Below are positions 189-52,140 of a DNA stretch of 64,000 nt, piece after piece. The notes below the pieces were generated by a model that saw only the letters and a list, made by a program, of their open reading frames with translations, did not search any database and was not told the DNA's origin. This DNA comes from Vicinamibacterales bacterium (GTDB lineage: Bacteria > Acidobacteriota > Vicinamibacteria > Vicinamibacterales > UBA8438), in the NCBI GenBank assembly GCA_965207665.1, contig CBDBMV010000002.1, positions 89,704 to 153,703 of the forward strand, in the 5' to 3' direction. Within the stretch, counting starts at the first letter, position 1. Every line of letters begins with the position of its first letter. The translations under genes and the position numbers were made by a program.

Positions 189-1223
189 ATGGATCGTCGA
201 TACCCGGCTTGCCGGAAAGTGACCGTATTCGCCGCCGCGCTCGTGCTCCTGGCGCCGCTGGCCGCGGCGCCGGCGGCCCAGGGTCAGGCCGATCAGAGCG
301 CGCCGCGCACGGCTTGGGGCGACCCCGACCTCCAGGGCATGTGGGACTTCCGCACGGTCACCCCGCTGGAACGGCCCGAGGAGTTCGCTGACAAGGAGTT
401 CCTGACGGCCGAGGACGCGGTGGCGCTGCGCGAGAACGAGCTCGCCAGCCGCAACGCCGACCGCCGCGGGTCGAGCCAGGCCAGCGACCTGGAGCGGGGC
501 TACAACGACTTCTGGTGGGACTACGGCTCCGAGCTGACCGAGGACCGCCGCACGTCGCTGATTGTCGACCCGCCGAACGGCCGGATGCCGCCCTTGACGG
601 CCGCGGCGGCGGCGCTGGCCAATGAGCCTCGGCGCGGCTCTCCGAAGGAGCGGATCGTGCTGGGCGTGGTGCCGTCAGGCCCCGAAGACATCGGTCTGGC
701 GGAGCGGTGCCTGGTGGGATTCAACTCCGGACCGCCGATCGTCCCGAGCTTCTACAACAACAACGTGCTGCTACTGCAAGGGCCCGGCTACGTCGTGCTG
801 CACACCGAGATGATTCACGAGACGCGCGTCATTCCCCTCGACGGGCGCCCGCACCTGCCGGCTTCGATGCGCCAGTGGCTGGGCGACTCCCGCGGGCGCT
901 GGGAAGGTGACACGCTGGTCGTGGAGACGAGGAACTTCACCGACAAGACCAGCTTCACCGGCCTGCCCTACCAACGCGGCGGCTCGACCGAGAACATGCA
1001 CCTGGTGGAGCGGTTTCGGCGGGCAAGCGCCGGCGGGCTCGTTTACGAGTTCACGGTCACGGACCCCGCGGCATGGACGCAGCCGTGGACGGCCGTCGTG
1101 CCTATGAAGCTGACGGACAGCCCGATATTCGAATACGCGTGCCACGAGGGCAACTACGCGATGTTCAACATGCTCGCCGGGTCCCGGTCCCAGGAGCGTG
1201 AGGAGGAGGAGAAGAAGCAATGA
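189..1223 (+). CDS. Secreted protein, uncharacterised paralog family (copy P1)
   Basis: 344-aa ORF with GAGGAGG upstream of the ATG and a signal-peptide-like N-terminus. All family blocks are present: PRTAWGDPDLQGMW, SLIVDPPNGRMP, ERC, EMIHETRVIPLDGRPH, WEGDTLVVET, YACHEGNY. Confidence 0.85.
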   Translation: MDRRYPACRKVTVFAAALVLLAPLAAAPAAQGQADQSAPRTAWGDPDLQGMWDFRTVTPLERPEEFADKEFLTAEDAVALRENELASRNADRRGSSQASDLERGYNDFWWDYGSELTEDRRTSLIVDPPNGRMPPLTAAAAALANEPRRGSPKERIVLGVVPSGPEDIGLAERCLVGFNSGPPIVPSFYNNNVLLLQGPGYVVLHTEMIHETRVIPLDGRPHLPASMRQWLGDSRGRWEGDTLVVETRNFTDKTSFTGLPYQRGGSTENMHLVERFRRASAGGLVYEFTVTDPAAWTQPWTAVVPMKLTDSPIFEYACHEGNYAMFNMLAGSRSQEREEEEKKQ

Positions 1224-2218
1224 CAGCTCGATTTGCCTGGATAGCGTTCGTAGTGGCCGGCGCCGTCGCGCTCGGTCCCGCGGCAGCCGCGGGCCAGACC
1301 GCGGGCGGCAGCGGGGAGATGCCCCGGACCGGCTGGGGCGACCCCGACCTGCAGGGCGTGTGGGACTTCCGGACGCTCACGCCGCTGGAGCGGCCCGACG
1401 CGCTGGGCGACCAGCAGACCTTTGCGACGGAGGAGGCGGCCGCCGAGTTCGCGGCAGTAACCGCCCATGCGCTCGATGCGGATCGCCGGGACAACGCCGA
1501 CCAGGCGTTCGGGTTCGGCAGCGATATCGAGCGCGCCTACAACCAGTTCTGGATGGACTACGGCAGCGACCTGACCGACGACCGGCGGACGTCGCTGATC
1601 GTCGATCCCCCCGACGGCAAGATCCCCTGGACCCCCGAAGGGCGCGAGCGTCCGGGCACGTTCGCCGGGGCATTCTCCGGCATGGTGACGGAAGGCCCCG
1701 AGGACCGGGCGCTCCCGGAGCGCTGCATCCTGGGCTTCAATGCCGGACCGCCGATGACGCCGAGCGCCTACAACAACAACGTGCAGTTGTTCCAGACGCC
1801 CGACACCGTGGTGATCTTCAACGAGATGGTCCACGACGCCCGCATCGTCCCGCTCGACGGGCGGCCGCACCTGGCGGATTCAGTCCGCCAGTGGATGGGC
1901 AACTCGCGGGGACGCTGGGAGGGCGACACGCTGGTTGTGGAGACCACCAACTTCCTGCGCGAGACGGCCTTCACCGGCTCCAGCGCCAACCTGCACCTCG
2001 TGGAGCGTTTCACGCGCGTCGCCGACGACGTGCTGCTGTACGAGTTCACGGCGTCGGATCCGACCACCTACACCCGGGCCTGGACCGCCCAGGTCCCGAT
2101 GCGCCTGTCGGACGGTCATCTCTACGAGTACGCCTGCCACGAAGGCAACTACGGCATGTTCAACCTGCTGGCCGGCGCGCGGGCCGAGGAGCGGGAGGCG
2201 GCCGCGGGCGGGCGGTAG
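1220..2218 (+). CDS. Secreted protein, uncharacterised paralog family (copy P2)
   Basis: 332-aa ORF whose start overlaps the P1 stop (ATGA). Same conserved blocks: PRTGWGDPDLQGVW ... YACHEGNY. Confidence 0.85.
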   Translation: MTARFAWIAFVVAGAVALGPAAAAGQTAGGSGEMPRTGWGDPDLQGVWDFRTLTPLERPDALGDQQTFATEEAAAEFAAVTAHALDADRRDNADQAFGFGSDIERAYNQFWMDYGSDLTDDRRTSLIVDPPDGKIPWTPEGRERPGTFAGAFSGMVTEGPEDRALPERCILGFNAGPPMTPSAYNNNVQLFQTPDTVVIFNEMVHDARIVPLDGRPHLADSVRQWMGNSRGRWEGDTLVVETTNFLRETAFTGSSANLHLVERFTRVADDVLLYEFTASDPTTYTRAWTAQVPMRLSDGHLYEYACHEGNYGMFNLLAGARAEEREAAAGGR

Positions 2219-2243
2219 ATCTCCGCGCTGCCGGCGCCAACCT

Positions 2244-3518
2244 ATGCGTGCCACAGCGGCGGGAATGGCCGCCGCGCTGCTCCTGGCGTGCGGCTCGGGT
2301 GACGGACGCGCCGTTTCCGGCCAGCAGCAGGCGCCTGCGGACGGCGCGGACGACCCGATCGCGGTGCTCGTCGGCCGGCTCGACCTGGAACGCTACAAGG
2401 CCATCATCAAGGGCCTGACGCAGTTCGGCGACCGCCGGCAGGGCACGCAGCGCAACCGGGACGCCGTCGACTGGATCGAAGCGCAGCTCGAGGCGGCCGG
2501 CTGCCCCACCGAGCGGCATCATTACGTCTACGATCCGCCGCCGCGGCCGGCCGACGACCGTGCCAGACCGCGCCGCGTCGCGGACGCCCCTTTGAACCCG
2601 CCCGGTCCGACTCCGACTGGCGGCCGCATTGGACGCAATGGCAGCGGTCCAGGCGGCAGCTCCATCTTCGGCTACCGGCGGCCGACCGGCGTCGTCCGCG
2701 ATCCGCTGGCCCAGCCCGACGAGGCGCTGCGTGCGCTGAACCTGGAGGAGCCGACCAACGGCGAGCGGTCGCAGGTGTACTGCACGAAGGTCGGCAGCAC
2801 GCGCCCCAGCGAGATGTACATCCTGGGAGCGCACATGGACGGCCACGGCTTCGGCGAGGGCGCCGACGACGACGCCTCGGGCACCGCGCTGGTTATGGAG
2901 CTGGCGCGCATCCTCAGCGCGCCGGACGTCGAGACCGGCGTGTCCATCCGCTTCGCGCTGTGGAACAACGAGGAGACCGGGCTCAACGGAAGCCGCGCGT
3001 ACGTCGAAGACCGCCGCGAGCAGCAGGGCATTGAAGACCCGCCCGGTTCCGGACGTTACCCCGAACCCCGCTGGCTGGGTATGATCCAGCACGACATGAT
3101 GCTATTCGACCACGGCGCGCCGGGACCGGACGGCGAGGTCAGCCCCGTTCAGCGGCGCGAGGCCGACGTCAACATCGAGTTCCAGTCGAATTCGGACCTG
3201 GCCGACGCGTCACGCGACCTTGCCTTCCGCTTCAAGGCCGCCAACGACGCCTACGCCACCGACTATCCCGCGGCCGTCGGCCCCCACATGACCAACACGG
3301 ACTCGACGCCGTTCATGAACCTCACGCCGTCGATCAGCCTGCGGGAGAACGAGCGCGGCATGCACATCGGCGCCGGCTGGAACCCCCACTGGCACCAACC
3401 CACCGACCTCTATCGGACGTACAACGACGACGACTTCCGTCTGGGACTGAACGCTGCGCAGACCACGCTGGCCGCGATAGCGGAGCTGGCCGAGGCGACG
3501 GTCGTCACACCTCGATAG
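2244..3518 (+). CDS. M28 family metallopeptidase
   Basis: Start trimmed to the ATG at 2244 (MRATAAGMAAALLLACGSG, lipoprotein-like). Zn-ligand motifs HMDGHGFGEGADDDASG and WNNEETGLNGS. Confidence 0.8.
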   Translation: MRATAAGMAAALLLACGSGDGRAVSGQQQAPADGADDPIAVLVGRLDLERYKAIIKGLTQFGDRRQGTQRNRDAVDWIEAQLEAAGCPTERHHYVYDPPPRPADDRARPRRVADAPLNPPGPTPTGGRIGRNGSGPGGSSIFGYRRPTGVVRDPLAQPDEALRALNLEEPTNGERSQVYCTKVGSTRPSEMYILGAHMDGHGFGEGADDDASGTALVMELARILSAPDVETGVSIRFALWNNEETGLNGSRAYVEDRREQQGIEDPPGSGRYPEPRWLGMIQHDMMLFDHGAPGPDGEVSPVQRREADVNIEFQSNSDLADASRDLAFRFKAANDAYATDYPAAVGPHMTNTDSTPFMNLTPSISLRENERGMHIGAGWNPHWHQPTDLYRTYNDDDFRLGLNAAQTTLAAIAELAEATVVTPR

Positions 3519-6790: not shown

Positions 6791-6826
6791 AGGTGCCGTT
6801 GGGTGACGCGCCGGATGTAGTACCGG

Positions 6827-7738
6827 TCAAACTCCCTGAAACCAATCGGACCGGATCCGCACCCTCTCGATCATCTCAGTCTCAACGCCAAGTTCGTTTT
6901 CCTTGAGCAGGTCGCAAAGGCGATCCCCGTCTATCAGGTCGATCGCGATCGCGCCATCCCGGGTGGCCTCATCAGAGGCCTGACTGGTGAAATTACCCGT
7001 TGTGATGAACAGGCCTTTGTCAGCACGCCCCTGCAACGCGCCGCGAAAATCCCTAATCTCCTTGGCGCCGACGCTCCCCTTCCAACGCTTGCACTGGAAA
7101 TAGATCTGAAAAGAAACCAAGTTCACGCGCAGCACGCCCACACCGTCGATACCACCGTCACCGGACTTCCCACGCACTTCGACTTTGGTGAATCCCGCTT
7201 CGCGCAAGAGACGTTGTGACAGCCGCTCAAATGCATCGGGCGGCATCGCAACCAGCACTGCCACGAGCGACGACTTCCAGTCTTCAGCCTCCTCTGAGTC
7301 GCCATTCGTCGATCCAACAATAGCCGCATCAGCCGCCTTGGCTGCCTGACGCTTGGCACGTGCTCGTTCGCGCTCTTCTTTCGCAACCTGCGCATAGATC
7401 GCACCTGTTTCGTCGAGCTCCGTGATCGCTGCTCCGCTATCGGTCAGCGCCCAGACCCCACGCGAAGAGTTCACGAGTGCCTTGCCGCGTCTGAGGTATG
7501 TGCGCGCCCAGGCGAGGTAGTAACTCACCCGCGTCTGGTTTTCGTTTCGTGGCATCGTGAAGGTCTGCTCGGCTTCGGTCACGCCCTCTAAATCGACCAC
7601 CTTCTCGTCAAGCTCTTGAATAGTGGCCGATCCGCCCAAGTCCTTGAGTGCTTCGATCGTAACTAGCATCATCCCGGGCAAATCCGGCAGGCTTTCCGCG
7701 TCGATCTCAAAACGTCTCTTTACCATTGCACTGTCCAA
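6827..7738 (-). CDS. mrr: Mrr-type restriction endonuclease
   Basis: N-terminal winged-helix-like region plus a C-terminal Mrr catalytic core: GDGGIDGVG ... YFQCKRW ... GLFITTG. G+C is visibly lower than the flanks. Confidence 0.85.
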   Translation of the reverse strand: MDSAMVKRRFEIDAESLPDLPGMMLVTIEALKDLGGSATIQELDEKVVDLEGVTEAEQTFTMPRNENQTRVSYYLAWARTYLRRGKALVNSSRGVWALTDSGAAITELDETGAIYAQVAKEERERARAKRQAAKAADAAIVGSTNGDSEEAEDWKSSLVAVLVAMPPDAFERLSQRLLREAGFTKVEVRGKSGDGGIDGVGVLRVNLVSFQIYFQCKRWKGSVGAKEIRDFRGALQGRADKGLFITTGNFTSQASDEATRDGAIAIDLIDGDRLCDLLKENELGVETEMIERVRIRSDWFQGV

Positions 7739-7999
7739 ATCGTTGGAATCACATGCCTACGAACTTGTCACCATCGCATGTGGTCCCTACTATAACCGGA
7801 CCTGTCGACCCTCGTGAACCGTGCTGGGTTTCCGGGAGGCTCCGCTTCTTCGATGCATGGAGTTCGAGGAAAGACCGAGTCGGTACACGCCGATGGAACG
7901 CGACAGGGCGGCTCGAATGGTACTGGAGTTGAGACGGACCGCTATCCGGTAGTGTGCCGCACCACCCCGGAGCCCCCCTGAAATCGAAGAAAATAGCGC

Positions 8000-8575
8000 A
8001 TGGCCACGTCAAGCCTTGGCAGACTAGCAGTGGTGCTTCGTACGGGCGACGAACAGTTCCAAGGCATCGCTGACTCGCTGCGGTTGCTCGACTACTGGCG
8101 CTGGTCCGGCTCCAGTCTCATGGACAACACGGCTCGAGGGTTGCTTGCCGAGTTCCTAGTTGCGGCGGCCGTTGGCCTGCACAAAACACCCCGGACTGAA
8201 TGGGATAGCTACGACGTGCGTGCGCCGAACGGCACCACGATCGAGGTCAAGAGCGCCGCCTCCATTCAGTCGTGGGAACAGGCCGCTCCGACCCCGATCC
8301 AGTTCGGGATCGCTCCTCGTTACGGCTGGGATCCAGAGACAGGGCAGTACGGCGAGCAGCCTCGGCGCTGGGCTGATCTCTACGTCTTCTGCGTCCTCAA
8401 GGGTACGGAGCCGCTCGACATCGACAAGTGGCAGTTCTACGTGGTTCAAACGACGGTGCTCAACGAAGTGTGCGGAGACCAGAGAACTATCCGCCTGGCG
8501 CCACTCCGTCGGCTTCCACACCGGCAATGTGGTTACCGGGACTTGAAGGACGTTATCGAGAACATGGACGGGTAG
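8000..8575 (+). CDS. PD-(D/E)xK nuclease-like hypothetical protein
   Basis: 191-aa ORF with LLAEFLV ... SYDVRAPNGTTIEVKSA (D ... ExK arrangement). Divergent from mrr. Confidence 0.55.
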   Translation: MATSSLGRLAVVLRTGDEQFQGIADSLRLLDYWRWSGSSLMDNTARGLLAEFLVAAAVGLHKTPRTEWDSYDVRAPNGTTIEVKSAASIQSWEQAAPTPIQFGIAPRYGWDPETGQYGEQPRRWADLYVFCVLKGTEPLDIDKWQFYVVQTTVLNEVCGDQRTIRLAPLRRLPHRQCGYRDLKDVIENMDG

Positions 8576-8721
8576 ACAGCATCGTTGCGCGCACATCGGC
8601 GCGTACTCCGTTGCAACGATGTTGTGGCGGCGAACGTCGGATTCGAACCCGTCGCGATGTCAACTGACGGAGACTTCGCCAGATGCGAAGCGGTCAACCA
8701 ACGACCACCGGCCTCTTGTAA

Positions 8722-9042
8722 TCGGACACCGGTGGCGACGGACCGGTAGTCGTGCTACTTCACGGCGTGCTGATGAATGGCAGCCTGTGGAACGGCATCG
8801 TGGAGGGCTTGCGCGATCGCTATCGCTGCATCGTCCCGGAGCTGCCGTTCGGCGCACACAGCACGCCGATGCCGAAGGATGCCGACCTCAGCCTCGGATC
8901 GATAACCACCATGATTGCCGAGTTCCTCGTGGAGCTCGACCTGCACGACGTCACTCTGGTCTGCAACGATTGGGGCAGCGCACAGCTCGTCGTCAGCCCC
9001 GGAGGTTCGGATCGGGTCGCGAACCTCGTGCTCGTCTCCTGC
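8722..9042 (+). pseudogene. Alpha/beta-hydrolase gene fragment, truncated at both ends
   Basis: Frame reads GGDGPVVVLLHGVLMNGSLW ... VTLVCNDWGSA (nucleophile-elbow position) ... NLVLVSC. An in-frame stop lies at 8719 just upstream. The 3' part is replaced by IS3 and IS110 sequence from about 9043. Confidence 0.6.
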
Positions 9043-9107
9043 ACCAGCCGAACCGCACGCTCCCGTACCTCCGGTGAATACCGACTCGGTCTTCCCATCG
9101 ACTCCAT
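9043..9107 (-). pseudogene. 5' fragment of an IS3-family orfA (about 22 codons)
   Basis: Minus strand reads (MES)MGRPSRYSPEVRERAVRLVQE, typical of the N-terminus of the IS3/IS911 HTH transposase orfA. Similarity is lost beyond that. Confidence 0.45.
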
Positions 9108-9111
9108 CCTC

Positions 9112-10503
9112 TTAAGAAACTCCAGGCTCCACGAGTTGGCCCGTTTCTAGATGGATCAGGCCGAGACCGAGTTGTTGGGCACGGTTACGGAGATTTCGTA
9201 GGGCGCGCGTACGGTGTTGCGCTTCGTAGGCGTCGACACCCGGATCGGCGTACTCGATGTCGCCGCGCAAAACCCGGTAGACAAGTATCGCGAGCTTACG
9301 AGCCGTCGCGGTGATGGCCTTGGCCTTCCCGACACGGTAGGCGAGACGGCGGTAGTACGCCCCGAGGGCGGTGGAGGTTCTCCCGACCGACATGGCGCAC
9401 AAGCGGAGTATGGTGGCGGCACGGTTCGCAGATGGGACGGTCCGCGAGCTAATCACTCGCCCTCCGGTGATCTTGTTCTTGGGCGCGAGGGTCAGCCAGG
9501 ACGTGAAGTGCTTTGCGCTGGGCCACCGCGTCATGTCGGTGCCGATCTCGGCGATGAGTCGTAGGGCCGTATACGGCCCGATGGAGTCGATCCGTGTGAG
9601 ATCCGCGCCGCAGAGGCGGTGGAGGGGGCTGCGAATCTCGAAGCGCGGTTCGTTCTTGGTCCGCTGCCGCTGCCGCGCCGGAGAAAGCGCGTTCTCGGAA
9701 GACGCGTGCTCCGCGGCCAAGTCCCGCAGCAGGGATTCGATCGCCTCATCGCATCGGCCGATCTGATGCTGATAGCTCTCGTAGAGTTCGAGGTTTTGGC
9801 GCAGGGCAAAGACATGCTCTGGCCGATAGTTCCCGGTCAGTGCGGCGGCAATCTCGTCCTCAGACGCACGACAGCGGTAGTTGCGGTGAGCCGCGAGTGC
9901 GCCGGGGTCGGTCACGCCGCGGGCGATGTCGCGTACGATTCGTATCCCCGTCTCTCCGGTGATGTCGGTAATGACATGATGGAGCTGGACGTTCATCTGC
10001 ACCAGGGCTTTCTGAATCCGACGGACGTGCGTGGCGGCATCCTGTATCAGCGTCTCCCGATGCCGGAGGTACGCGCGGAGTGAGACCAGATCCGCTGACG
10101 GTCGGAAACTCCCGCGCAGCAGGCCGACGCTGTGCAGTTCCTGCAGCCACTGGCAGTCGATCACATCCGTCTTCCGTCCCGGGACGTTCTTCACGTGTCG
10201 GGCGTTCACCAGCACTACCTCAAAGCCTTGTGCTTCGAGCATGTCATACAGCGGGATCCAGAACACGCCGGTGGCCTCCATAGCCACCGTGTCGATGCGG
10301 CATGCCTGCAACCACTCGACCAGTTTAGAAAGCTGTGGCGTCAGCGTCCTGAAGCGACGGACCGGCTCTCGGTCCCGATCGGCCGGTACCGCCACGTAGT
10401 GATGCTGAGCCCCGCAGTCGATCCCGGCGGCGTTGGGCTTGATCTCCGGTAGTGCCGCCGCCGGCTTCTTCGTCTTCTGTGCACGAACGCGCCTGTCTGC
10501 CAT
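9112..10503 (-). CDS. IS110-family transposase (DEDD/RuvC-like N-terminal domain plus C-terminal Tnp domain)
   Basis: 463 aa: AGIDCGAQHHYVAV, VAMEATGVFW, VVLVNARHVKN ... KTDVIDCQWL; C-terminal LTRIDSIGPYTALRLIAEIG ... FTSWLTLAPKNKITGG. Confidence 0.9.
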   Translation of the reverse strand: MADRRVRAQKTKKPAAALPEIKPNAAGIDCGAQHHYVAVPADRDREPVRRFRTLTPQLSKLVEWLQACRIDTVAMEATGVFWIPLYDMLEAQGFEVVLVNARHVKNVPGRKTDVIDCQWLQELHSVGLLRGSFRPSADLVSLRAYLRHRETLIQDAATHVRRIQKALVQMNVQLHHVITDITGETGIRIVRDIARGVTDPGALAAHRNYRCRASEDEIAAALTGNYRPEHVFALRQNLELYESYQHQIGRCDEAIESLLRDLAAEHASSENALSPARQRQRTKNEPRFEIRSPLHRLCGADLTRIDSIGPYTALRLIAEIGTDMTRWPSAKHFTSWLTLAPKNKITGGRVISSRTVPSANRAATILRLCAMSVGRTSTALGAYYRRLAYRVGKAKAITATARKLAILVYRVLRGDIEYADPGVDAYEAQHRTRALRNLRNRAQQLGLGLIHLETGQLVEPGVS

Positions 10504-10766
10504 CGGATCCTCCTCCGCTCGGCGATTGGAGAGTCCGGGGGCAGGGTGCGGTTAGGAACAATCTCTTAAGCGGGATCACGCAAGCGTGTCACCAACGAGG
10601 TGGCCGCGACACATCCCTTGGACCACGCTCCCAAACGGGCTCGCCAAGCACCAGTGGAAGGGTCGGCCTCAGTCCCCGGACGCCGCCGCGACTCTACCCC
10701 AGCATGCCGCGAGAGAACCCCGGTTTCTTTGATTTCAGGTGTCGGGCGTCGCGCCCCGTACGGCGG
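10504..10766 (-). ncRNA. Candidate bridge-RNA-encoding 5' non-coding end of IS110 copy 1
   Basis: 263 nt without a credible ORF, upstream of the transposase gene. Contains 8-mers identical to the element-end/core junction (ctcttaag at 10563-10570) and to the target-flank/core junction (gctcccaa at 10627-10634). Confidence 0.35.
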
Positions 10767-10769
10767 CTC

Positions 10770-12161: not shown

Positions 12162-12424
12162 CGGATCCTCCTCCGCTCGGCGATTGGAGAGTCCGGGGGC
12201 AGGGTGCGGTTAGGAACAATCTCTTAAGCGGGATCACGCAAGCGTGTCACCAACGAGGTGGCCGCGACACATCCCTTGGACCACGCTCCCAAACGGGCTC
12301 GCCAAGCACCAGTGGAAGGGTCGGCCTCAGTCCCCGGACGCCGCCGCGACTCTACCCCAGCATGCCGCGAGAGAACCCCGGTTTCTTTGATTTCAGGTGT
12401 CGGGCGTCGCGCCCCGTACGGCGG
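12162..12424 (-). ncRNA. Candidate bridge-RNA-encoding 5' non-coding end of IS110 copy 2
   Basis: Identical to 10504..10766. Confidence 0.35.
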
Positions 12425-40431: not shown

Positions 40432-40447
40432 CTGTGCTACTCGCCTG

Positions 40448-41899: not shown

Positions 41900-42062
41900 C
41901 AGACAGACCTCCGTCGTCGGCGAGGGAATGGGTTCCCTTGATGTGCATCGAAACGATACATCGAAATGCGCAAATGGCCAAACGCGTCCGGCATGATCGC
42001 AACGCAACCGCGTCGCTCGGCGGCGGCGGGTGTATGATCGACCGCGTTCCAGGAGGTGCGGA

Positions 42063-43088
42063 ATGCCGTATCGTTGCCTTGTTGCATCGTTGAGCGTCGT
42101 CGTGCTCGTCGTCCTGGCGCCGGTCGCCGCCGCGGGCCAGGAAGCGGACGGGTGGACCATGCCGAGGACGCCGTGGGGCGACCCGGACCTGATGGGCACC
42201 TACACGAACAAGACCATCACGCCGGTGCAACGTCCCGAGGAGCTGGCCGGACAGGAATTCCTCAGCGCCGAAGAAATAGAACGGCTGGAGCGCGAGCGCA
42301 TCGAGCGCAACGACCGGCTGCTGCACGCGCCGCCGCAGACGACCGTGGCGGGCGGCGACGTGGGCGCCTACAACAATTTCTGGCTGGACTTCGGCACGCG
42401 GCCGACCGAGCGTACGTCCCTGATCGTCGACCCGCCCGACGGGCGCATCCCGCCGGTCACGCCGGAATATGAAGCGTACGCGAAGCGGCGCGCCGAGGAG
42501 CGCCTGACCCGCGGAGAGGCCGACTCCTACACGGACCTGCAGCTCAACGACCGCTGCATCGTCTGGTCGGCCGGCCCGCCGATGATGCCGGGGCCGTACA
42601 ACAACACGTACATGATCTTCCAGACGCAGGACTTCATCGCCATCGAGGTGGAAATGATCCACGACACGCGGATCATCCCGCTGGACGGGCGGCCGCACCT
42701 GCCGTCGCACATCCGGCAGTACCTGGGCGACATGCGGGGCCGCTGGGAAGGCGACACGCTGGTCGTCGAAACGACGAACATCCAGCGCACCGAGGGCGAG
42801 CCCGGCGTGCAGGGCGCCGACGAGTTCGAGATCCGCGCCTCGAACGGCCGCACCGACGACACTATCCGCATCGTCGAGCGGTTCACGCGGGTCTCCGACG
42901 ACACCATCAACTACCAGTTCACGGTCGAGGATCCCAGCCGCTGGACGCGGAGCTACTCGGGCGAATTTCCGTTCGTGATGACCGACGGCAACCTGTACGA
43001 ATACGCCTGCCACGAGGGCAACTACAGCATGCCCAATATCCTGGGCGGCGAACGCGCCCTGGAAGCGGCCGGCCGGCGCTCGCGCTAG
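42063..43088 (+). CDS. Secreted protein, uncharacterised paralog family (copy P9)
   Basis: AGGAGG upstream of the ATG at 42063. PRTPWGDPDLMGTY ... SLIVDPPDGRIPP ... DRC ... EMIHDTRIIPLDGRPH ... YACHEGNY. Confidence 0.85.
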   Translation: MPYRCLVASLSVVVLVVLAPVAAAGQEADGWTMPRTPWGDPDLMGTYTNKTITPVQRPEELAGQEFLSAEEIERLERERIERNDRLLHAPPQTTVAGGDVGAYNNFWLDFGTRPTERTSLIVDPPDGRIPPVTPEYEAYAKRRAEERLTRGEADSYTDLQLNDRCIVWSAGPPMMPGPYNNTYMIFQTQDFIAIEVEMIHDTRIIPLDGRPHLPSHIRQYLGDMRGRWEGDTLVVETTNIQRTEGEPGVQGADEFEIRASNGRTDDTIRIVERFTRVSDDTINYQFTVEDPSRWTRSYSGEFPFVMTDGNLYEYACHEGNYSMPNILGGERALEAAGRRSR

Positions 43089-43117: not shown

Positions 43118-43645
43118 ATGCGGGCAATCGGTACGGCGCTCTGTCTGATGCTTGCGGCGGGGGTCGTCACGGCCCAGGCACCGGCCTCCGGGCCGCCGAC
43201 CGCGAACCTGGCGCAGCTCATGCGCGCCATCATGTTTCCGAACTCGAACATCATCTTCAACGTTCAGGGGCAGGACCCGGCGGAGCCGAAGCCGATCTAC
43301 GAGCCCGGGAGCGGCAGCTTCTCCTGGGTCGACTGGGGCGCCGGCATCTACACCGGGTGGGAGGTTGTGGAGAACGCCGGCATCGCGATCGAGGAGGCCA
43401 CTGATCTCGTGATGAAACCCGGCCGCGTCTGCACCAACGGCCGGCCCGTGCCTCTGGAGCAGGCCGACTTCGTGACCGGCATCGGACGCCTGCGGGCGGT
43501 GGCGAGGGACGTGCAGGAAGCCGCCCGGGCGGAGGATCAGGAGCAGGTGATCGAGCTCACCACGCGCCTCGCCGAGGCGTGCTACGGTTGCCACCAAGTG
43601 CACCGCATCGCCCCGCCGGGCGGAGAGAACCGTTGCGTCCCGTAA
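43118..43645 (+). CDS. Class II c-type cytochrome (c-prime/c556-like four-helix bundle)
   Basis: Signal peptide and a single CYGCH motif near the C-terminus, the class II arrangement. Confidence 0.7.
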   Translation: MRAIGTALCLMLAAGVVTAQAPASGPPTANLAQLMRAIMFPNSNIIFNVQGQDPAEPKPIYEPGSGSFSWVDWGAGIYTGWEVVENAGIAIEEATDLVMKPGRVCTNGRPVPLEQADFVTGIGRLRAVARDVQEAARAEDQEQVIELTTRLAEACYGCHQVHRIAPPGGENRCVP

Positions 43646-44264: not shown

Positions 44265-45239
44265 ATGAATCTACGTACCATTGCTGCGCTGTTGGCGCTG
44301 TTAATCCCGCTGCTGCTCGCGCCCGCGCCCGCCGCGGCGCAGTCGGAGGCCGGCTGGAACGCGCCCAGGACGGACTGGGGCCATCCGGACCTGCAGGGAG
44401 TCTGGTCGAACAAGACCACGACGCCCCTGGAGCGTCCCGCGGACCTGGCCGGCAAGACGGAGCTGACGGACGAGGAGTGGGCGCTGCGCAACCCCGAGGC
44501 GGGCCTGAGCGACGACCGCCCGAGCGGCGACCCGGTCGGCTTCTACAACGATTACTGGCTGGAGCAGGGCGAGCTGTCGAAGGCGACCTCGCTCATCGTG
44601 GACCCGCCGGACGGCCGGCTGCCGGCGTCGACGCCCTCCGAGCAGGAGCTGCAACGCACCGCGAAGAGCTCCTACAGCTCCATCGGCGGCGCGAGCTTCG
44701 ACACCTACCTCGAGTTCAACGCCTACGACCGCTGCATCACGCGCGGCATGCCGGGGGCGATGACGCCGGGGTTCTACAACCACAACTACCAGATCCTCCA
44801 GACGCCGGACCACGTCGTGATCATGGTCGAGATGATCCACGACGCGCGCATCATCCCGCTGGACGGCAGCCCGCATCCCGATCCTTCGATACGGCAGTGG
44901 ATGGGCGACTCGCGCGGCTACTGGGACGGTGACACGCTGGTCGTCGAGAGCCGCAACTTCACCGGCAAGATCCCGCACCGCATCGGCACGGTGTCGGCCG
45001 GAAGCGAGCATCTCCACGTGGTGGAGCGGTTCACCCGCGTGGACGCTGACACCATCGACTACCAGGTGACCGTGACGGATCCCACCATCTGGACCAGCTC
45101 CTGGACGACGTCGATGCCGATGACGGTGCTGGACGGCTCGATCTACGAGTACGCGTGCCACGAAGGCAACTACTTCCTGCCGAACGCGCTGCGTGGTTCA
45201 CGTGCGGAGGAAGCGGCCATGGAGTCCGCGTCGAAGTAA
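44265..45239 (+). CDS. Secreted protein, uncharacterised paralog family (copy P10)
   Basis: Start trimmed to MNLRTIAALLALLIPLLLAPAPAAAQ. PRTDWGHPDLQGVW ... YACHEGNY. Confidence 0.85.
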   Translation: MNLRTIAALLALLIPLLLAPAPAAAQSEAGWNAPRTDWGHPDLQGVWSNKTTTPLERPADLAGKTELTDEEWALRNPEAGLSDDRPSGDPVGFYNDYWLEQGELSKATSLIVDPPDGRLPASTPSEQELQRTAKSSYSSIGGASFDTYLEFNAYDRCITRGMPGAMTPGFYNHNYQILQTPDHVVIMVEMIHDARIIPLDGSPHPDPSIRQWMGDSRGYWDGDTLVVESRNFTGKIPHRIGTVSAGSEHLHVVERFTRVDADTIDYQVTVTDPTIWTSSWTTSMPMTVLDGSIYEYACHEGNYFLPNALRGSRAEEAAMESASK

Positions 45240-46630: not shown

Positions 46631-48877
46631 ATGGTTGAGAGGACTCGCCGTGGCGCGCGACTCGGACGCATCCTGTGCTGGATGATTGTCGCGCTGCCGC
46701 TAACCGGCCAGGCCGCCGTGAGTGAGACAACCCACCAGCAGGAGACCGTAATTCGGGGCGTCGTGACGGACAGGGATGGGCGGCCGCTCGCCGGCGTGCA
46801 GGTCTACATGCAGGGCAGCCAGACCCTCGAGGCAACCGATGCGCAGGGCCGCTTCGTCCTGCGCACCGGGGAGACGGGATCCCGCGTGCTCGTCGCCTTC
46901 GCTCCCGGATACTGGTCGTCGGAAGTGCTGCTCGAGCTCGACGGCTCCGCACTGGACGTCGAGGTGTTGATGGAGCCTGCCGACCTGGCGGAGACGGTCG
47001 AGGTCGCGGCGCCCGCGCCCGAAGACGCGGCTCCCTCGGTGCAGGCGTTCGAAGCCCTCGACGTCGTGCGGCTTCCGGGCGCGCAGGCCGACGTGATGCT
47101 CTACGTCCAGAACCTGGCCGGGGTGAATCAACTCAACGACGAAGCCGGGTTGTTCGTGCGCGGCGGCGATTCGAACGAAGTGCTCACGATGCTCGACGAG
47201 GCCGTGCTGTACCACCCCTACCGCTACGAGACGGTAACCGGCGGTATCCGTGGAACCGTGGATCCGTTTCTGACGAGCGGAATCGCCTTCAGTTCCGGCG
47301 GCTTTCCGGCACGGTACGGGAACGCGCTGAGCGGCGTGCTGGAGATGAGCGGCCTGGGACGGCCGGCGGCGCCCGCGGCAGGGGCGACGCTGGCGCTGAG
47401 CGGCGTTTCCGGCAATGCATCCCTGCCTGTACGCGATCAGGGCGGCGTACGCGTCTCCGGTAACTGGTCGGAGACAGGCCCGATGTTCCGCTTGAACCGG
47501 TCGCCGCGGGCGTTCACCCGCCATCCGGATTCCCGGGATGTGAACGCCAGCGGCCACTACGAATCACCGGCGCTCGGATCGTTCAAGGTGTTCGGGATGT
47601 CGCTGCGGGAGAACGTCGGCATCGAGATCGAGCGGGAAGCGTTCCGGGGCTTCCTGGAATCGGCGAATGCGAACGACCTGGCGTACCTGCGCTGGGACAA
47701 GCTGTCCGCGGGCGGATGGCGCGCGGGCGCGACGTTGGCCGTGACCGAGTACCGCAGCGGCACACATGCCGGTGCGCTCGACATCCAGCAGGCCGATCGC
47801 CGGCAGTCCTGGCGCTTCGACGTGTCCCGCATCACCGCCGCCGGGACCGTTCGTTTCGGGACCGACGGGAGCAGGTCGCGCCACGCCTTCGCGGGACGTG
47901 CGCCGCACACGAGCGTCGACGTCGGTGGCGTGCGGGGTGTGTCGTCGTTCGACGTCGCGTTCGACGACTGGCACTCCGGCTCCTACGTCGAGTTCGAGGG
48001 CGCGCCGGGAGTGCTCGTGCCAAACCTCGGCGTGCGCATCGACCGGTTCGACCGCGCCGGCGCCACCAGGATTGACCCGCGGCTGGGCCTGCTCGTCAGA
48101 ACCGGGGAACGCCAGCGGCTCCGCGTCGCCTGGGGCGTCTACCACCAGGCTCCCGGGACGGGCAGCTACTACGGCTCCTACCGCGGATCGGCTGCCCTGG
48201 AGCCGATGAAGGCGTACCACTGGGTGGGCGGCTACGAGTACGCGGCCCCGGACGAGTCGCTGCAGTTGCGTGTGGAGGCGTATTACAAGCGCTATCGTGA
48301 TCTACCGCTCGAGTACCCGGCGAGGACGTTCTCGTCCACGGGGTACGGCGCTGCCCGCGGCGTCGACCTGTACGCACGGAAGGGCTGGCGGAACCTGAGT
48401 GTGGAAGCCGTCTACGGTTGGCTGCACACCCGGCGCAGATGGACGTCGACGGTAGAGGCGTCACGCGGCCTCGACGTCCCGGAAACGGGAACGTGGACGC
48501 CCCACTTCGCGATTCCCCACGGGCTGCGCGCGACGGCGACGGTCGCGGTGACAGACACCGTGACCGCCTCGGCGAGCTGGCGTACAGCGTCCGGACGGCC
48601 ATTCACGCCCGTCGTGGCCGCGAGACCAGGCGAGCTGGGATACGTGCCGGTCTACGGCGCCATCAACTCGGACCGCGCGCCGCGCTACGAACGGCTCGAC
48701 CTCGGCATGGACATCATTACGCCGTTCGGTCCGATCCTGTTCGCCGCGGTCACGAACGCGCTGGGCCGGGACAACGTGCTGGATTACGCCTACTCGCCCG
48801 ACTACGCCGAACGCAGGCCCGTCGCGGTCGCGTTGCCGCGGGCCGTATATTTCGGAATGACGGTGTCGTTGCGCTAG
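46631..48877 (+). CDS. TonB-dependent receptor-like outer-membrane protein with carboxypeptidase-regulatory-like N-terminal domain
   Basis: IRGVVTDRDGRPLAGVQVYMQGSQTLEATDAQGRFVL, a plug-like region (VVRLPGAQADV ... FVRGGDSNEV) and a long beta-rich C-terminus. Confidence 0.7.
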   Translation: MVERTRRGARLGRILCWMIVALPLTGQAAVSETTHQQETVIRGVVTDRDGRPLAGVQVYMQGSQTLEATDAQGRFVLRTGETGSRVLVAFAPGYWSSEVLLELDGSALDVEVLMEPADLAETVEVAAPAPEDAAPSVQAFEALDVVRLPGAQADVMLYVQNLAGVNQLNDEAGLFVRGGDSNEVLTMLDEAVLYHPYRYETVTGGIRGTVDPFLTSGIAFSSGGFPARYGNALSGVLEMSGLGRPAAPAAGATLALSGVSGNASLPVRDQGGVRVSGNWSETGPMFRLNRSPRAFTRHPDSRDVNASGHYESPALGSFKVFGMSLRENVGIEIEREAFRGFLESANANDLAYLRWDKLSAGGWRAGATLAVTEYRSGTHAGALDIQQADRRQSWRFDVSRITAAGTVRFGTDGSRSRHAFAGRAPHTSVDVGGVRGVSSFDVAFDDWHSGSYVEFEGAPGVLVPNLGVRIDRFDRAGATRIDPRLGLLVRTGERQRLRVAWGVYHQAPGTGSYYGSYRGSAALEPMKAYHWVGGYEYAAPDESLQLRVEAYYKRYRDLPLEYPARTFSSTGYGAARGVDLYARKGWRNLSVEAVYGWLHTRRRWTSTVEASRGLDVPETGTWTPHFAIPHGLRATATVAVTDTVTASASWRTASGRPFTPVVAARPGELGYVPVYGAINSDRAPRYERLDLGMDIITPFGPILFAAVTNALGRDNVLDYAYSPDYAERRPVAVALPRAVYFGMTVSLR

Positions 48878-48899: not shown

Positions 48900-49670
48900 A
48901 TGCGGCGAACGGAAAGTGCGGTGTTTGCCTTCGGCATGGTCGCCCTGCTGGCGGCGCCGGCCACGGGGGCGGAGTTTGCGGAAGTCTGGCCCGGAGTCGT
49001 CGAGCGGATCGAGCGGGCGTACGTGCTGGGCGACGCCTCGGGAATGCGGTCCGCGCGAACGGCTGTCAAGGAGCTGCTGGGCTCCCAGCTGACGGACGAC
49101 CAGCGATCGATCGCGCGCTACACCGTCGCCTACCTCAACTGGCGGCTGTTCTTCCTCACGGACAGCTCGGCCGACGATGAGCGGGAGGCGCTGCTCGACG
49201 AAGCATTGGAGCTGCTGGGCGCAGATGTCGCGGAAAACGACGCCAACGCGGAATCTCACGCGCTGATGGCCAGCGTCTACGGCCTGCAGATCAGCCAGTC
49301 CCGCCTGAGAGCGGCGTTCCTCGGCACGCGGGCGGGTCGCGCGTCCGCGCGCGCCGCGGAGCTCGAACCGAATAATCCCCGCGTGCTGCTGCTCGACGGC
49401 ATCGGCAAGCTGAACACGCCCAGGGCGTTCGGCGGCGGCGAAGACCGGGCCGAGGCACTGCTGCTGCGGGCCGCCGCGGCGTTCCGCACGGAGCCGCCCG
49501 GTCGCCCGTGGCCGCGTTGGGGGCGCATCGATGCGTACGCGTGGCTGGGACAGGTTGCGGTCAGGCGTGGTGACGCGGACGCTGCACGGCGATACTACCT
49601 GCAGGCGCTCGATATCGAACCGGAGTTCGCCTGGGTGCGCCAGGTGCTGCTGCCGGCGCTGGAGCAGTGA
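48900..49670 (+). CDS. Secreted helical-repeat (TPR-like) protein
   Basis: Signal peptide and Ala/Leu-rich helical repeats, ending VAVRRGDADAARRYYLQALDIEPEF. Confidence 0.55.
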   Translation: MRRTESAVFAFGMVALLAAPATGAEFAEVWPGVVERIERAYVLGDASGMRSARTAVKELLGSQLTDDQRSIARYTVAYLNWRLFFLTDSSADDEREALLDEALELLGADVAENDANAESHALMASVYGLQISQSRLRAAFLGTRAGRASARAAELEPNNPRVLLLDGIGKLNTPRAFGGGEDRAEALLLRAAAAFRTEPPGRPWPRWGRIDAYAWLGQVAVRRGDADAARRYYLQALDIEPEFAWVRQVLLPALEQ

Positions 49671-49741
49671 CCGCGCCAGGAGCAGGGCAGGCGCGAGAGG
49701 TATGCCGCCTATATGCTTATTGCGTCATCAAGGAGGAGCAC

Positions 49742-51088
49742 GTGCGGCACGGGATAGCGCTGGCGCTCGGCGCCGGCCTGGTCGCCCTGACGGGCAGCGG
49801 ACTGCACGCCGAGGACTGGCCGCAGTGGTGGGGGCCGGACCGCAGCGGCGTCTGGCGCGAGACGGGCATCGTCGAACGCTTTCCCGAAGACGGCCTCAAG
49901 GTAACCTGGAGCGTCCCGATCGGCAACGGCTTCGGCGGGCCGGCCGTGGCCGACGGCCGCGTGTTCGTCACCGACTGGCACGAGGACCCGGAGTCGCGCA
50001 CGGTCGACGGCACCGAACGGGTGCTGGCGCTCGACGAGGAGACCGGCGAGATCCTCTGGACGTACTCCTGGGGCACGACCTACCGCACGCTCATGCTGTC
50101 GTACGCGGCCGGCCCGATGGCCACGCCGACGGTCGACGGGGACCGCGTCTACGTGCTCGGCGCCACCGGGCTGCTCTGGTGTCTCGACGTCGAGACCGGC
50201 GCCGTCATCTGGCACCGCAACTACCTCGCGGAATACGACGCCAGCATGCCGGAGACCGGCAGCTCCAGCGCGCCGCTCGTGGACGGGGACCAGCTCATTA
50301 CGGTTGTCGGCGGGGAGCCGGATGCCCTCGTCGTCTCGTTCGACAAGTACACCGGCGCGGAGTTGTGGCGGTCCCTGGAAGTGACCGGCGGCAGCCGGGC
50401 GGCGCCGATCATCTACGAGGCGGGCGGCGTCCGCCAGTTGATCATCTGGCACCCGTCTGCACTGGTGTCTCTCAACCCCGAGAACGGAGAGGTCTACTGG
50501 GAGGAGCCCTGGCAGGTCGGCGGCATGAACGTGGTCACGCCGGTCAGGTCGGGCAACTACCTGCTGGTCAGCAACTTCTACAACGGCTCGATGATGATGC
50601 GGCTCAGCAACGACCGGCCGGCCGCGACGATGATGTGGAAGGGATCGAGCCGCAGCGAATTCCCGAACGAGACCGACGGACTGCACGCCGTCATCACGCC
50701 CCCGCAGATCATCGGCGACTACGTCTACGGCGTGGGGAGCTACGGCGAGCTGCGCGGTCTCGACGCGCTCACCGGCGAGCGGCTGTGGATGAGCGGGGAG
50801 ATGACGCCCCAGTCGCGCTGGGGCGGCGCGTTCATCGTGCAACACGAAGACCGCTACTTCGTCAACAACGACGACGGCGACCTCATCATCGCGCAGTTCA
50901 CGCCGGAGGGCTACGTCGAGCTCGATCGCACGAAGCTGATCGAGGCCACTACGAGCGCAGGTTACGGTCCGCGCAGGCGGCACGACCGGCTGGTCAACTG
51001 GTGCCACCCGGCCTACGCCAACCGCCACATCGTGCAACGCAACGCGCAGCGGATCCTGCGCGCGTCGCTCGCGGCCGAAGACTACTAA
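49742..51088 (+). CDS. PQQ-like (BamB-type) beta-propeller repeat protein
   Basis: AAGGAGG upstream of the GTG at 49742, then a signal peptide. EDWPQWWGPDRSGVW ... GPAVADGRVFV and repeated propeller blades. Confidence 0.75.
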   Translation: MRHGIALALGAGLVALTGSGLHAEDWPQWWGPDRSGVWRETGIVERFPEDGLKVTWSVPIGNGFGGPAVADGRVFVTDWHEDPESRTVDGTERVLALDEETGEILWTYSWGTTYRTLMLSYAAGPMATPTVDGDRVYVLGATGLLWCLDVETGAVIWHRNYLAEYDASMPETGSSSAPLVDGDQLITVVGGEPDALVVSFDKYTGAELWRSLEVTGGSRAAPIIYEAGGVRQLIIWHPSALVSLNPENGEVYWEEPWQVGGMNVVTPVRSGNYLLVSNFYNGSMMMRLSNDRPAATMMWKGSSRSEFPNETDGLHAVITPPQIIGDYVYGVGSYGELRGLDALTGERLWMSGEMTPQSRWGGAFIVQHEDRYFVNNDDGDLIIAQFTPEGYVELDRTKLIEATTSAGYGPRRRHDRLVNWCHPAYANRHIVQRNAQRILRASLAAEDY

Positions 51089-51105
51089 TCGAGGGGAACA
51101 CCGTG

Positions 51106-52140
51106 ATGTGCAGCAGCAATATCCGTGCGGCGCGGTTCGTGATGGCGGCCGCAGTCCTGTTGTTGGGCGTGCAGGGAGCTGCCGCGCAAGTGACGGACGC
51201 GGTGGCCGCGGCCGTCGAGGGCGAAGCCTGGGTCCACCCGCGCACGCCGTGGGGCGACCCCGACCTGCAGGGCATCTGGAACAACACCGCGTGGAACGCG
51301 ACGCCCCTCGAATTTCAGACCGAGGAAGACATCGCGGAGACGGAAAGAAGGCGCAGGAATCGTCCCAGGCTCCCCGGCGCCGCCAGTGTCGGCTACGACG
51401 GCGATATCTGGGGTGAGGGCGCCCGCGCGGGGCGGGCCACGCCGCCGATCGACCTGACGCACCTGATCGTCGAACCGGCCAACGGCAAGCTGCCGGCCCT
51501 GACGCCGGAAGCGCAGCAGAGATGGGATGCCCGGCGCGAGGCCCGCAGGGGCCTTTCGCAGGACGAGCCGCGGCCGGGCGCCTGGGTCGAGGACGTCACC
51601 GTGTGGATGCGCTGCATCTCGCGCGGCCTGCCGGACGCGATGTTTCCCCGGCTGTACAACAACGTCTACCACTTCCTCCAGATCCCGGGGTACGTCGTCA
51701 TCGTCTACGAGATGATTCACGACGCCCGCATCATTCCCCTGGGCGGCGGTGCGCACCTGCCCGAGCACATGCGCCAATGGCTCGGCGACTCGCGCGGACG
51801 CTGGGAAGGCGACACGCTCGTGGTCGAGACGGAGAATTTCGTCGGCCATGAGTTCGGCCTGATTCCCCACGGCGGGGGCGGCGCCGGCACCTACCGCGGG
51901 GCGAGTAGGGCCCTGAAGCTCACCGAGCGCTTCACGCGCGTCTCGGACGAGTTCATCGACTACCGGTTCACGATCGACGATCCCTACCTCTATACGGCCC
52001 CCTGGACGGGTGCGGTTCCCCTGACGACGATCGAGAGTCCGGAGGGGATCCTGGAATACGCGTGCCACGAGGGGAACTACGCCATCGTCACCGCCCTCGG
52101 CGGCGCGCTCGCGCGCGACGCCGCTCCCGCGTCCAGGTAG
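51106..52140 (+). CDS. Secreted protein, uncharacterised paralog family (copy P11)
   Basis: Last 345 codons of a much longer artefactual ORF. MCSSNIRAARFVMAAAVLLLG signal, then PRTPWGDPDLQGIW ... EMIHDARIIPLGGGAH ... YACHEGNY. Confidence 0.85.
   Translation: MCSSNIRAARFVMAAAVLLLGVQGAAAQVTDAVAAAVEGEAWVHPRTPWGDPDLQGIWNNTAWNATPLEFQTEEDIAETERRRRNRPRLPGAASVGYDGDIWGEGARAGRATPPIDLTHLIVEPANGKLPALTPEAQQRWDARREARRGLSQDEPRPGAWVEDVTVWMRCISRGLPDAMFPRLYNNVYHFLQIPGYVVIVYEMIHDARIIPLGGGAHLPEHMRQWLGDSRGRWEGDTLVVETENFVGHEFGLIPHGGGGAGTYRGASRALKLTERFTRVSDEFIDYRFTIDDPYLYTAPWTGAVPLTTIESPEGILEYACHEGNYAIVTALGGALARDAAPASR

Follow-up and report, generated by a model that had tools for sequence, protein, structure and literature searches.

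A large undescribed family of secreted bacterial proteins with a predicted fatty-acid-binding-protein-like fold, present in eleven copies at a Vicinamibacterales locus

Eleven paralogs within 52 kb

The window analyzed here is a whole stretch of 64,000 nucleotides (~70% G+C) from a Vicinamibacterales bacterium (assembly GCA_965207665.1, contig CBDBMV010000002.1), in which eleven genes, numbered as copies 1 to 11 below, encode members of one family of secreted proteins. A sequence-only reading of this DNA had described them as eleven copies of a single architecture of ~320 amino acids (aa) that account for roughly one sixth of the window, and the open reading frames (ORFs) are all present at the coordinates and strands that it gave, with all of its motifs. 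When translated, ten of the eleven intervals give proteins of 319-344 aa and the remaining one a protein of 579 aa, and the copies together take up 10,818 bases, or 16.9% of the window.

Copy 1: 189-1223, + strand, 344 aa, signal peptide and full family domain (457 bits against the family hidden Markov model, HMM)
Copy 2: 1220-2218, + strand, 332 aa (472 bits against the family HMM)
Copy 3: 24268-25227, - strand, 319 aa, last gene of a tandem triplet (alignment and family HMM)
Copy 4: 25251-26219, - strand, 322 aa, middle gene of the triplet (alignment and family HMM)
Copy 5: 26263-27228, - strand, 321 aa, first gene of the triplet (alignment and family HMM)
Copy 6: 31216-32187, + strand, 323 aa, most divergent copy, without YNxFW (352 bits)
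Copy 7: 38530-39519, + strand, 329 aa, GTG start (412 bits)
Copy 8: 42063-43088, + strand, 341 aa, followed by a small CxxCH protein (43118-43645)
Copy 9: 44265-45239, + strand, 324 aa, target of AlphaFold2 modelling
Copy 10: 51106-52140, + strand, 344 aa, last gene of its run (359 bits)
Copy 11: 34099-35838, + strand, secreted fusion of two VOC (glyoxalase/dioxygenase-type) domains, then the family domain (~34948-35838)

The alignment of all eleven copies (A1) shows the blocks PRTxWGxPDLQGxW, TPLERP, YNxFW, SLIVDPPDG, ERC and YNN/YNH..Q, together with EMIHDxRIIPLDGRPH, RQWxGDSRGRWEGDTLVVET, LVERFTR, DP...TRPWT and EYACHEGNY, and variation is concentrated in two segments, an acidic one that follows TPLERP and a loop located behind VVETxN. 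The features of a signal peptide, namely a K/R residue, then a hydrophobic segment with a hydropathy maximum of 2.5-3.2 over 12 residues, and an A-x-A/Q site shortly before P[RQ]T, are found in the ten stand-alone copies, for which the earlier claims of secretion and of a signal peptide on each copy hold; in copy 11, the signal peptide belongs instead to the VOC part, with the family domain behind it. This fusion recurs in one of the related loci considered below (L046, VOC part 60% identical), and in another (L066) VOC and family genes are separate but adjacent. A further fusion, of the family domain with a Lipocalin_5 domain, was returned by a search of representative proteins, in which the remaining fusion partners were mostly uninformative.

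Pairwise protein identity between copies is 41-57%, the exception being the tandem triplet of copies 3-5 (24268-27228, - strand), with 81-84% identity at the protein and 83-86% at the DNA level. Other metagenome-assembled genomes (MAGs) contain distinct orthologs of the window paralogs (64-78% identity), including a 72% identical ortholog of copy 6 in L026 and a 78% identical one of copy 8 in L074, and the triplet alone is lineage-specific; the paralogs are therefore old. Given that long spurious ORFs are abundant at 70% G+C, the repeats might be suspected to be artefacts, either assembly duplications or spurious ORFs, but this is hardly credible for copies that differ by 43-59% in protein sequence, have distinct orthologs in other genomes, belong to a family with tens of thousands of members, and show a coding-type third-position G+C (0.87-0.93) as expected for real genes of this genome. 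The artefact explanation was rejected on sequence divergence, and only the tandem triplet is still questionable by read mapping. The eleven copies are diverged paralogs, not assembly duplicates, and the expansion noticed in the window is genuine.

Copy 2 begins before copy 1 has ended: its start codon and the stop codon of copy 1 share a 4-base overlap (1220-1223), which suggests translational coupling of the two. Both are found at 95% identity on a 4.4-Mb metagenomic contig (L080), where the order copy 1-copy 2-M28 peptidase is kept and metallo-beta-lactamase and short-chain dehydrogenase/reductase (SDR) neighbours are also shared.

An unnamed family and its subfamilies

None of the eleven copies has a match in Pfam-A or NCBIfam, nor has any of ten divergent relatives scanned against Pfam/NCBIfam. 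Sequence searches of the PDB with canonical and superfamily profiles returned nothing relevant, a lone match to the signal peptide of streptavidin being spurious. Database members carry only 'hypothetical' or empty names, including a RefSeq-annotated homolog from Novosphingobium; an exact-sequence look-up of copy 9 gave no record, and no paper containing the family motifs was found in a literature search. The family is large, real, unnamed and undescribed, and its predicted fold is already known, so that the proposal of an undescribed module stands for the family and falls for the fold.

An exhaustive HMMER search, which covered 1.84 billion representatives (clusters at 50% identity), returned 27,533 of them at E <= 1e-3, 15,102 at 1e-10 and 3,376 at 1e-30. 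At least 8,000 family matches were obtained by a word-indexed search, and at least 593 were confirmed on one-genome-per-species contigs, the best 80 of which come almost entirely from Acidobacteriota MAGs (Vicinamibacterales, Bryobacterales), with a few from Gammaproteobacteria. Remote members are carried by Novosphingobium. The family's ~27,500 clusters belong for the most part to Acidobacteriota, which are abundant in soil and sea, hard to culture and poorly annotated.

Several subfamilies, namely a canonical one (the window type), a 'YDTGQGQ' variant and short forms of ~250-290 aa, can be told apart in an alignment of 177 family ORFs, taken from the window and 79 related loci, and in a 36-sequence superfamily alignment. 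The short forms retain the two cysteines (xKCY ... EFKCVE) as well as G-x-S-x-G-x-WEGDTLVV, ER(Y/F), DP and PW, and are without the His after the second Cys, EGNY, EMIH and the PRTPWG context. In the 'YDTGQGQ' subfamily, EMIHDAR is replaced, EPRCHEGNY is kept and an extra Cys-rich insertion is present. Members of this subfamily pair with an 'AHWDLE' short subfamily and with DUF6152, a family treated below, in Vicinamibacterales. Examples of 'YDTGQGQ' members are the following.

L005: 11085-13313 and 14066-15214
L067: 1110-4843
L074: 1112-3226

Predicted fold

The AlphaFold2 model of copy 9, made with a 79-sequence alignment, has a predicted local distance difference test score (pLDDT) of 82.5 and a predicted template modelling score (pTM) of 0.79. 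It shows a short first strand at G-x-W, a long and mostly non-regular insertion that includes a few helices, then eight antiparallel strands (174-288) and a C-terminal helix. When compared with the PDB by Foldseek, it gave only weak matches (E >= 1e-3), the top ones being barrels of the fatty-acid-binding-protein type (SAHS1/4, CRABP2 and NanoLuc). A second model was made for P0320, a minimal relative of 247 aa (74 sequences, pLDDT 86.6), and this model has 44 PDB matches at E <= 1e-3, all of them intracellular lipid-binding proteins (iLBPs; retinol-, retinoic-acid- and fatty-acid-binding), with probability 1.0 and target-normalised template modelling (TM) scores of 0.5-0.64; the alignments span the entire target. 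Homology between the minimal subfamily and the canonical one is clear from hhalign (probability 100%, E 9e-46).

Both models run from strand A through helices to 8-9 further strands, giving an up-and-down antiparallel barrel with a helical insertion between strands 1 and 2. G45 and W47 of G-x-W, located on model strand 45-48, are invariant in the 36-sequence superfamily alignment and are conserved in 100% and 90%, respectively, of 401 canonical sequences. By prediction, the fold is a calycin barrel like that of fatty-acid-binding proteins (FABPs), and the proteins are not sequence members of the iLBP family. Structure prediction followed by Foldseek, which had been proposed as a check, has thus led to a FABP-like fold. 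This placement is the first testable handle on these proteins, together with the probable disulfide, the conserved polar site predicted at the barrel mouth under a variable lid, and the reciprocal linkage to DUF6152 and DUF6644, all considered below.

The cysteine pair and the conserved polar site

Two cysteines, C157 of ERC and C298 of EYACH, are near-invariant (>= 90%) in the superfamily alignment and present in 100% of the 401 canonical sequences. Divergent subfamilies keep both, with C-H replaced by C-V-E, C-I-E, C-W or C-D. Since both Cys are retained in secreted proteins independently of the adjacent His, a structural disulfide is favoured, and the conservation pattern indicates that C157 and C298 most likely form one, rather than a heme or a Cys-His metal or catalytic motif. 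The invariant Cys and His had been taken to mark either a metal or redox site or a structural disulfide, and it is the latter that the subfamilies lacking the C-H unit support. Two further candidates were tried and rejected: single-Cys (xxxCH) heme attachment, given the loss of His where both Cys persist, and a cupredoxin, given the FABP-like Foldseek matches.

Among the 401 canonical sequences, conservation reaches 99-100% at R-C of ERC, E of EMIH and the R that follows, W of WEGD, E of VERF, and E, C, H, E and N of E-Y-A-C-H-E-G-N; the H of CHE is conserved in 99% and that of EMIH in 91%. Entropy is high at residues ~59-106, 125-150 and 229-247 and in the last strand, and the concentration of variation first seen in eleven copies extends to the canonical set, where loop and lid are variable and the barrel is conserved. 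If the FABP-type meander supported by Foldseek is assumed, the lid end ('portal') of the barrel would hold the C-D turn (EMIH), the E-F turn (G-D), EYACHEGNY and the ERC segment, and the hypervariable F-G loop would be placed at the opposite end.

Gene neighbourhood

Four sets of features adjoin the family genes in the window or recur with them elsewhere.

2244-3518, + strand: M28 peptidase, directly downstream of copies 1-2 (Pfam PF04389, E 1.9e-23; start approximate, from the L080 ortholog)
27343-28600, - strand: cytochrome P450, directly upstream of copies 5-4-3 (PF00067, E 3.3e-30; start approximate)
49667-51088, + strand: PQQ_2-type beta-propeller, directly upstream of copy 10 (PF13360, E 7e-32)
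39544-42199, - strand, and 60932-62323, + strand: regions of cytochrome-c-containing proteins, found also in L032, L036, L041, L045, L062 and L071

The M28 peptidase has an 87% identical homolog in L067. The P450 bears its motif FGRGIHFCLG at 27493-27522, and an NHL-repeat protein is encoded further upstream of the P450 and the triplet. Copy 6 has a nitroreductase and a PD40 propeller as neighbours, a trypsin-PDZ protease and a Na+/H+ exchanger lie between copies 11 and 7, and copies 8 and 9 are accompanied by the small CxxCH protein, a SnoaL_4 protein and a methyltransferase. The run that ends in copy 10 comprises a CarboxypepD_reg outer-membrane protein (46631-48877), a tetratricopeptide repeat (TPR) protein, the PQQ_2 propeller and copy 10; a 69% identical homolog of this propeller adjoins family genes in L065. 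A TonB-type receptor and two pyrroloquinoline quinone (PQQ) dehydrogenases, one of them a quinohemoprotein, are encoded nearby. Of the neighbours listed in the sequence-only reading, the TonB-type receptor, PQQ propellers, c-type cytochromes, P450 and VOC domains were all recovered, and the rhodanese was not found among the window ORFs scanned.

Across 80 loci, 1,246 neighbouring genes were clustered, and genes on the same strand separated by a gap under 80 bp were counted as close neighbours. No constant partner emerged besides family members, which make up 55 of the 119 close neighbours; PQQ dehydrogenases account for 3 of the 119, and almost every other neighbour is a singleton, among them esterases, an amidohydrolase, metallo-beta-lactamases, M48, PSD1 and GSDH. 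By raw count, 27 of the 80 loci encode PQQ dehydrogenases, 16 of them at a distance of no more than two genes, and this linkage amounts to co-enrichment rather than to a rule of shared operons. Proteins of the PSD/PSCyt (DUF1592) type are encoded in 13 loci, TonB-type receptors in 12 and DUF1552 in 11. The statement that redox and uptake components always share an operon with the copies was therefore too strong: family genes cluster with one another, and they do so where many secreted enzymes are encoded.

Other observations concern the redox genes themselves. The gene at 17095-19547 (- strand) encodes a PQQ propeller with two CxxCH motifs (19344-19358 and 19083-19097) at the N-terminal side, which makes it a quinohemoprotein-type dehydrogenase, and is divergent from a second, PQQ alcohol-dehydrogenase-type gene of 661 aa (19580-21565). 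The cytochrome-c-containing protein listed above recurs in 12 loci as a protein of 460-580 aa with an N-terminal CxxCH cytochrome c domain, the rest being unannotated, and it is often paired with a protein of ~300-400 aa without a Pfam match (39544-40758 in the window). Together the two are another unnamed periplasmic module.

The window also holds a low-G+C island (6800-15930; 0.57-0.64 versus ~0.70), which ends at a tRNA gene (15837-15924, - strand) and contains an Mrr restriction endonuclease (6827-7738, - strand), two IS110 copies and a 699-aa reverse transcriptase (12610-14709, - strand). At 9109-12424, a 1658-bp unit with an IS110-family transposase is present twice in tandem (9112-10503 and 10770-12161); at least the first 300 bases of the units are 100% identical, and the ORF coordinates within the unit are the same. 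A search of the window with Rfam found two tRNAs only, with no group II intron RNA at the reverse transcriptase island, and the enzyme may be of a defence or retron type. L080 has FRG and McrBC genes at this position instead.

Linkage to DUF6152 and DUF6644 outside the window

The sole tight partner of the superfamily, DUF6152 (PF19649 in precomputed Pfam hits), was not mentioned in the sequence-only reading and is absent from the window, where neither it nor DUF6644 has a match even at E < 1. The survey of relatives suggested earlier thus revealed a family in the tens of thousands that clusters with itself and has its tight partner only elsewhere. The neighbour clustering had missed DUF6152, the gene of which is short and diverse, and it was found through the RefSeq-annotated Novosphingobium homolog. 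On the Novosphingobium humi plasmid NZ_CP117419 (L081), this remote homolog is followed by a 'DUF6152 family protein', and two divergent 'DUF6644 family' genes precede it. Profile matches to DUF6152 occur in 23 of the 79 genome-scan loci and in all three Novosphingobium loci, and in 18 cases among the 79 loci the gene directly follows a canonical or divergent member of the family. Conversely, three DUF6152 proteins, selected on no other ground than their location on long contigs, all adjoin a canonical family gene, and two of the three have a full cassette of short member, canonical member and DUF6152. This cassette recurs in Acidobacteriota, the DUF6152 linkage reaches Novosphingobium, and paired DUF6644 genes join the cassette in six acidobacterial and three Novosphingobium loci.

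DUF6152 adjacent to a family gene: L005, L011, L015, L024, L027, L030, L032, L037, L039, L046, L053, L057, L059, L067, L070, L073, L074, L079 and L081-L087
Paired DUF6644 genes: L024 7687-8668 and 11079-12087; L036 3093-4082; L037 6028-7219; L044 4499-5564; L053 13236-13724; L064 17104-17631; L081 4930-5905; L082; L083

DUF6152 is a small secreted protein of ~105 residues when mature, with an invariant NPH motif and invariant H28, H29, H55 and E76, and a cleavage site A-x-A followed by a His-His N-terminus. Copper proteins with an N-terminal histidine brace include CopC, YcnI and lytic polysaccharide monooxygenases (LPMOs), and the resemblance of the His-His N-terminus to these, as an analogy, is a lead. 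DUF6644 has ~160 aa, four predicted transmembrane helices and invariant His, Lys, Trp and Arg, and the paired proteins might be a membrane component of the cassette system. The PDB offers no informative relative of either family, and a literature search on the two found no relevant paper. In L081, the family/DUF6152 operon is followed by a TetR regulator and then by acyl-CoA catabolism genes (9760-16324), among them an electron-transfer flavoprotein (ETF), ETF-ubiquinone oxidoreductase, enoyl-CoA hydratases, thiolase BktB and MmsB; this single observation is compatible with a lipid-like ligand.

Proposed function and alternative explanations

We give about an even chance to an interpretation in which the family members are periplasmic, disulfide-stapled FABP-like barrels that accommodate small hydrophobic or amphipathic molecules under a paralog-specific lid, where these are held or transformed at a conserved polar site in the mouth. 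A Sec signal peptide would send each copy to the periplasm. There, the core would form a FABP/iLBP-type calycin barrel, with G-x-W in the first strand, an up-and-down meander and a C-terminal helix, and the insertion of ~125 residues after strand A would sit where FABPs have their helical lid. The cysteines of ERC, which directly precedes strand B, and of EYACH, which directly follows the last strand, would be joined in a disulfide that pins the C-terminal segment to the lid end, at which the near-invariant polar residues (the E and H in EMIH, the D in WEGD, and E..CHE.N(Y)) are predicted to gather. Each paralog would then capture a small, probably hydrophobic or amphipathic molecule under its own lid, and the polar site at the barrel mouth would anchor, or act chemically on, a functional group common to the ligands. 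The paralogs would be an old, substrate-diversified set that serves the periplasmic hydrolases and oxidoreductases encoded around them.

A role with small ligands is favoured by the neighbours, which include the P450, esterases, the amidohydrolase, metallo-beta-lactamases, and PQQ and GSDH dehydrogenases, as well as by the fusion to or adjacency with VOC domains and the Lipocalin_5 fusion. The earlier proposal of substrate-diversified paralogs of an enzyme or binding module agrees with old paralogs that have variable lids; as to enzyme or binder, the very strong conservation of His and of charged residues speaks somewhat more for catalysis or cofactor binding than for passive carriage. If family members are indeed periplasmic carriers or enzymes for hydrophobic substrates, this would help explain how Acidobacteriota handle diverse organic matter, and would give a fold known chiefly from animals a large bacterial branch.

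Several points weigh against this interpretation. The FABP analogy holds at the level of the fold only: hhalign gives a probability of 0.8% against human FABP4, that is, no sequence signal, and no Pfam family matches at E <= 1, lipocalin and FABP models included. Proximity of the two cysteines, clustering of the polar residues and the cavity itself are read from topology, and any ligand, metal or activity is a prediction. EYACHEGNY is modelled with moderate confidence only (pLDDT ~69 in copy 9), which would fit a site completed by a ligand, metal or partner. Conservation in the 401 sequences is seen on both faces of most barrel strands, a pattern compatible with a barrel that is wrapped and buried, and hardly informative as to an open cavity. 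In addition, the neighbours are heterogeneous, and some, such as the P450 and the methyltransferase, are cytoplasmic.

The linkage with DUF6152 raises the alternative that the family is part of a metal-handling (e.g., copper) or metal-dependent oxidative system together with DUF6152 and the paired four-helix DUF6644, the conserved His and Glu of EMIH and CHE binding metal themselves or receiving it from DUF6152. The recurrence of the cassette, with or without two DUF6644 genes, the 18 directly downstream DUF6152 genes and those adjacent in the three Novosphingobium loci, the reciprocal look-up, the invariant His and Glu of DUF6152 with its cleavage at A-x-A|HH, and the conservation of the two His (99% and 91%) and of two E residues (100%) in the canonical sequences would all suit such a system. 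Even so, we regard it as unlikely: the window is without either partner, DUF6152 adjoins only ~8% of canonical copies, subfamilies within the cassette have themselves lost the His residues, neither partner has an informative PDB relative, and metal binding by DUF6152 is an analogy with the histidine braces of CopC, YcnI and LPMOs. Metals aside, the frequent cytochrome c neighbours, the PQQ-dehydrogenase genes of 27 loci, no more than two genes away in 16 of these, and the Cys-His dipeptide invariant in canonical members could be taken to indicate a redox partner or electron carrier for these enzymes, with a single-Cys (CH) heme, a copper site or a redox-active disulfide. Such a role appears very improbable for proteins of which none of the eleven window copies has a CxxCH motif, which lose the His after the Cys in subfamilies keeping both Cys, and whose fold matches are FABP-like and not cupredoxin or cytochrome; PQQ dehydrogenases are, moreover, only 3 of 119 operonic partners, and their counts are raw rather than relative to the background of these genomes.

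It is also conceivable, if distinctly doubtful, that the family is a non-enzymatic protein-binding module, be it a periplasmic protease inhibitor, a chaperone or an adaptor docking on propellers or receptors, to which the variable loops would lend partner specificity. Copies do adjoin proteases (M28, trypsin-PDZ, M48) and NHL, PD40 and PQQ_2 propellers, weak Foldseek matches include the calycin-like bacterial adhesin/inhibitor proteins Tp0751 and fHbp, and the hypervariable loop is predicted at the barrel end opposite the conserved site; however, the 119 close neighbours contain no constant protein partner, the recurrent fusion partner, VOC, is a small-molecule enzyme domain, and a charged/His cluster conserved at 99-100% in 401 sequences is more typical of a ligand or catalytic site. 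Capture of small ligands and the DUF6152 linkage can be joined in a broader and rather speculative proposal, to which we assign a low probability, that the superfamily is the core of an undescribed periplasmic multi-component system composed of heteromers of short and canonical members, the His-brace-like DUF6152 and the paired four-transmembrane-helix DUF6644. The task of this system would be to capture small molecules that are hydrophobic or metal-bound and either to transform them by oxidation or to import them, and 'orphan' canonical paralogs, such as those of the window, would be its substrate-specific feeders.

Comparison with known systems

The closest structural likeness of the lidded barrel proposed here is to the iLBPs (FABP, cellular retinol-binding protein, CRBP, and cellular retinoic-acid-binding protein, CRABP), with which the predicted fold agrees over the whole FABP chain, in the G-x-W of strand A, the lid insertion between strands A and B and the up-and-down barrel. 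In contrast to FABPs, which are cytosolic, ~130 aa in length and without a signal peptide, the family is bacterial and secreted, with members of 250-345 aa (319-344 aa and with signal-peptide features in the stand-alone copies). Its lid insertion is 70-125 residues long, it has a conserved Cys pair and a dense set of invariant polar residues not found in FABPs, and its sequence is unrelated by the hhalign and Pfam comparisons given above. The copy 9 model finds its best PDB matches in the secretory abundant heat-soluble (SAHS) proteins of tardigrades and in NanoLuc/Oplophorus luciferase; SAHS proteins are secreted, and NanoLuc shows that a FABP-like fold can be catalytic. The matches themselves are weak (E ~1e-3 to 5e-2, TM ~0.5), and sequence and biology are unrelated.

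Bacterial periplasmic calycins, including Blc, YceI, ZinT/YodA and VtrA-VtrC, have lipids, isoprenoids, bile salts or metals as their ligands. They resemble the family in being extracytoplasmic beta-barrels, but none matches it by sequence or as a top fold hit, and they are encoded by single or few-copy genes, as opposed to tens of family paralogs. DUF6152 (PF19649) and DUF6644, both absent from the window, are uncharacterised families genetically linked to the superfamily, and are partners rather than homologs. Large paralog expansions of secreted proteins, scattered beside varied catabolic genes, are known from the orphan periplasmic binding proteins of the Bug/TctC type. The likeness of these to the family is one of functional analogy only, as they have a Venus flytrap fold and a known membrane partner, TctAB. 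What distinguishes the present family among many 'dark' ones is its size, its local density of eleven copies in 52 kb, its bacterial, secreted, FABP-like architecture as predicted, and its reciprocal link to two uncharacterised families.

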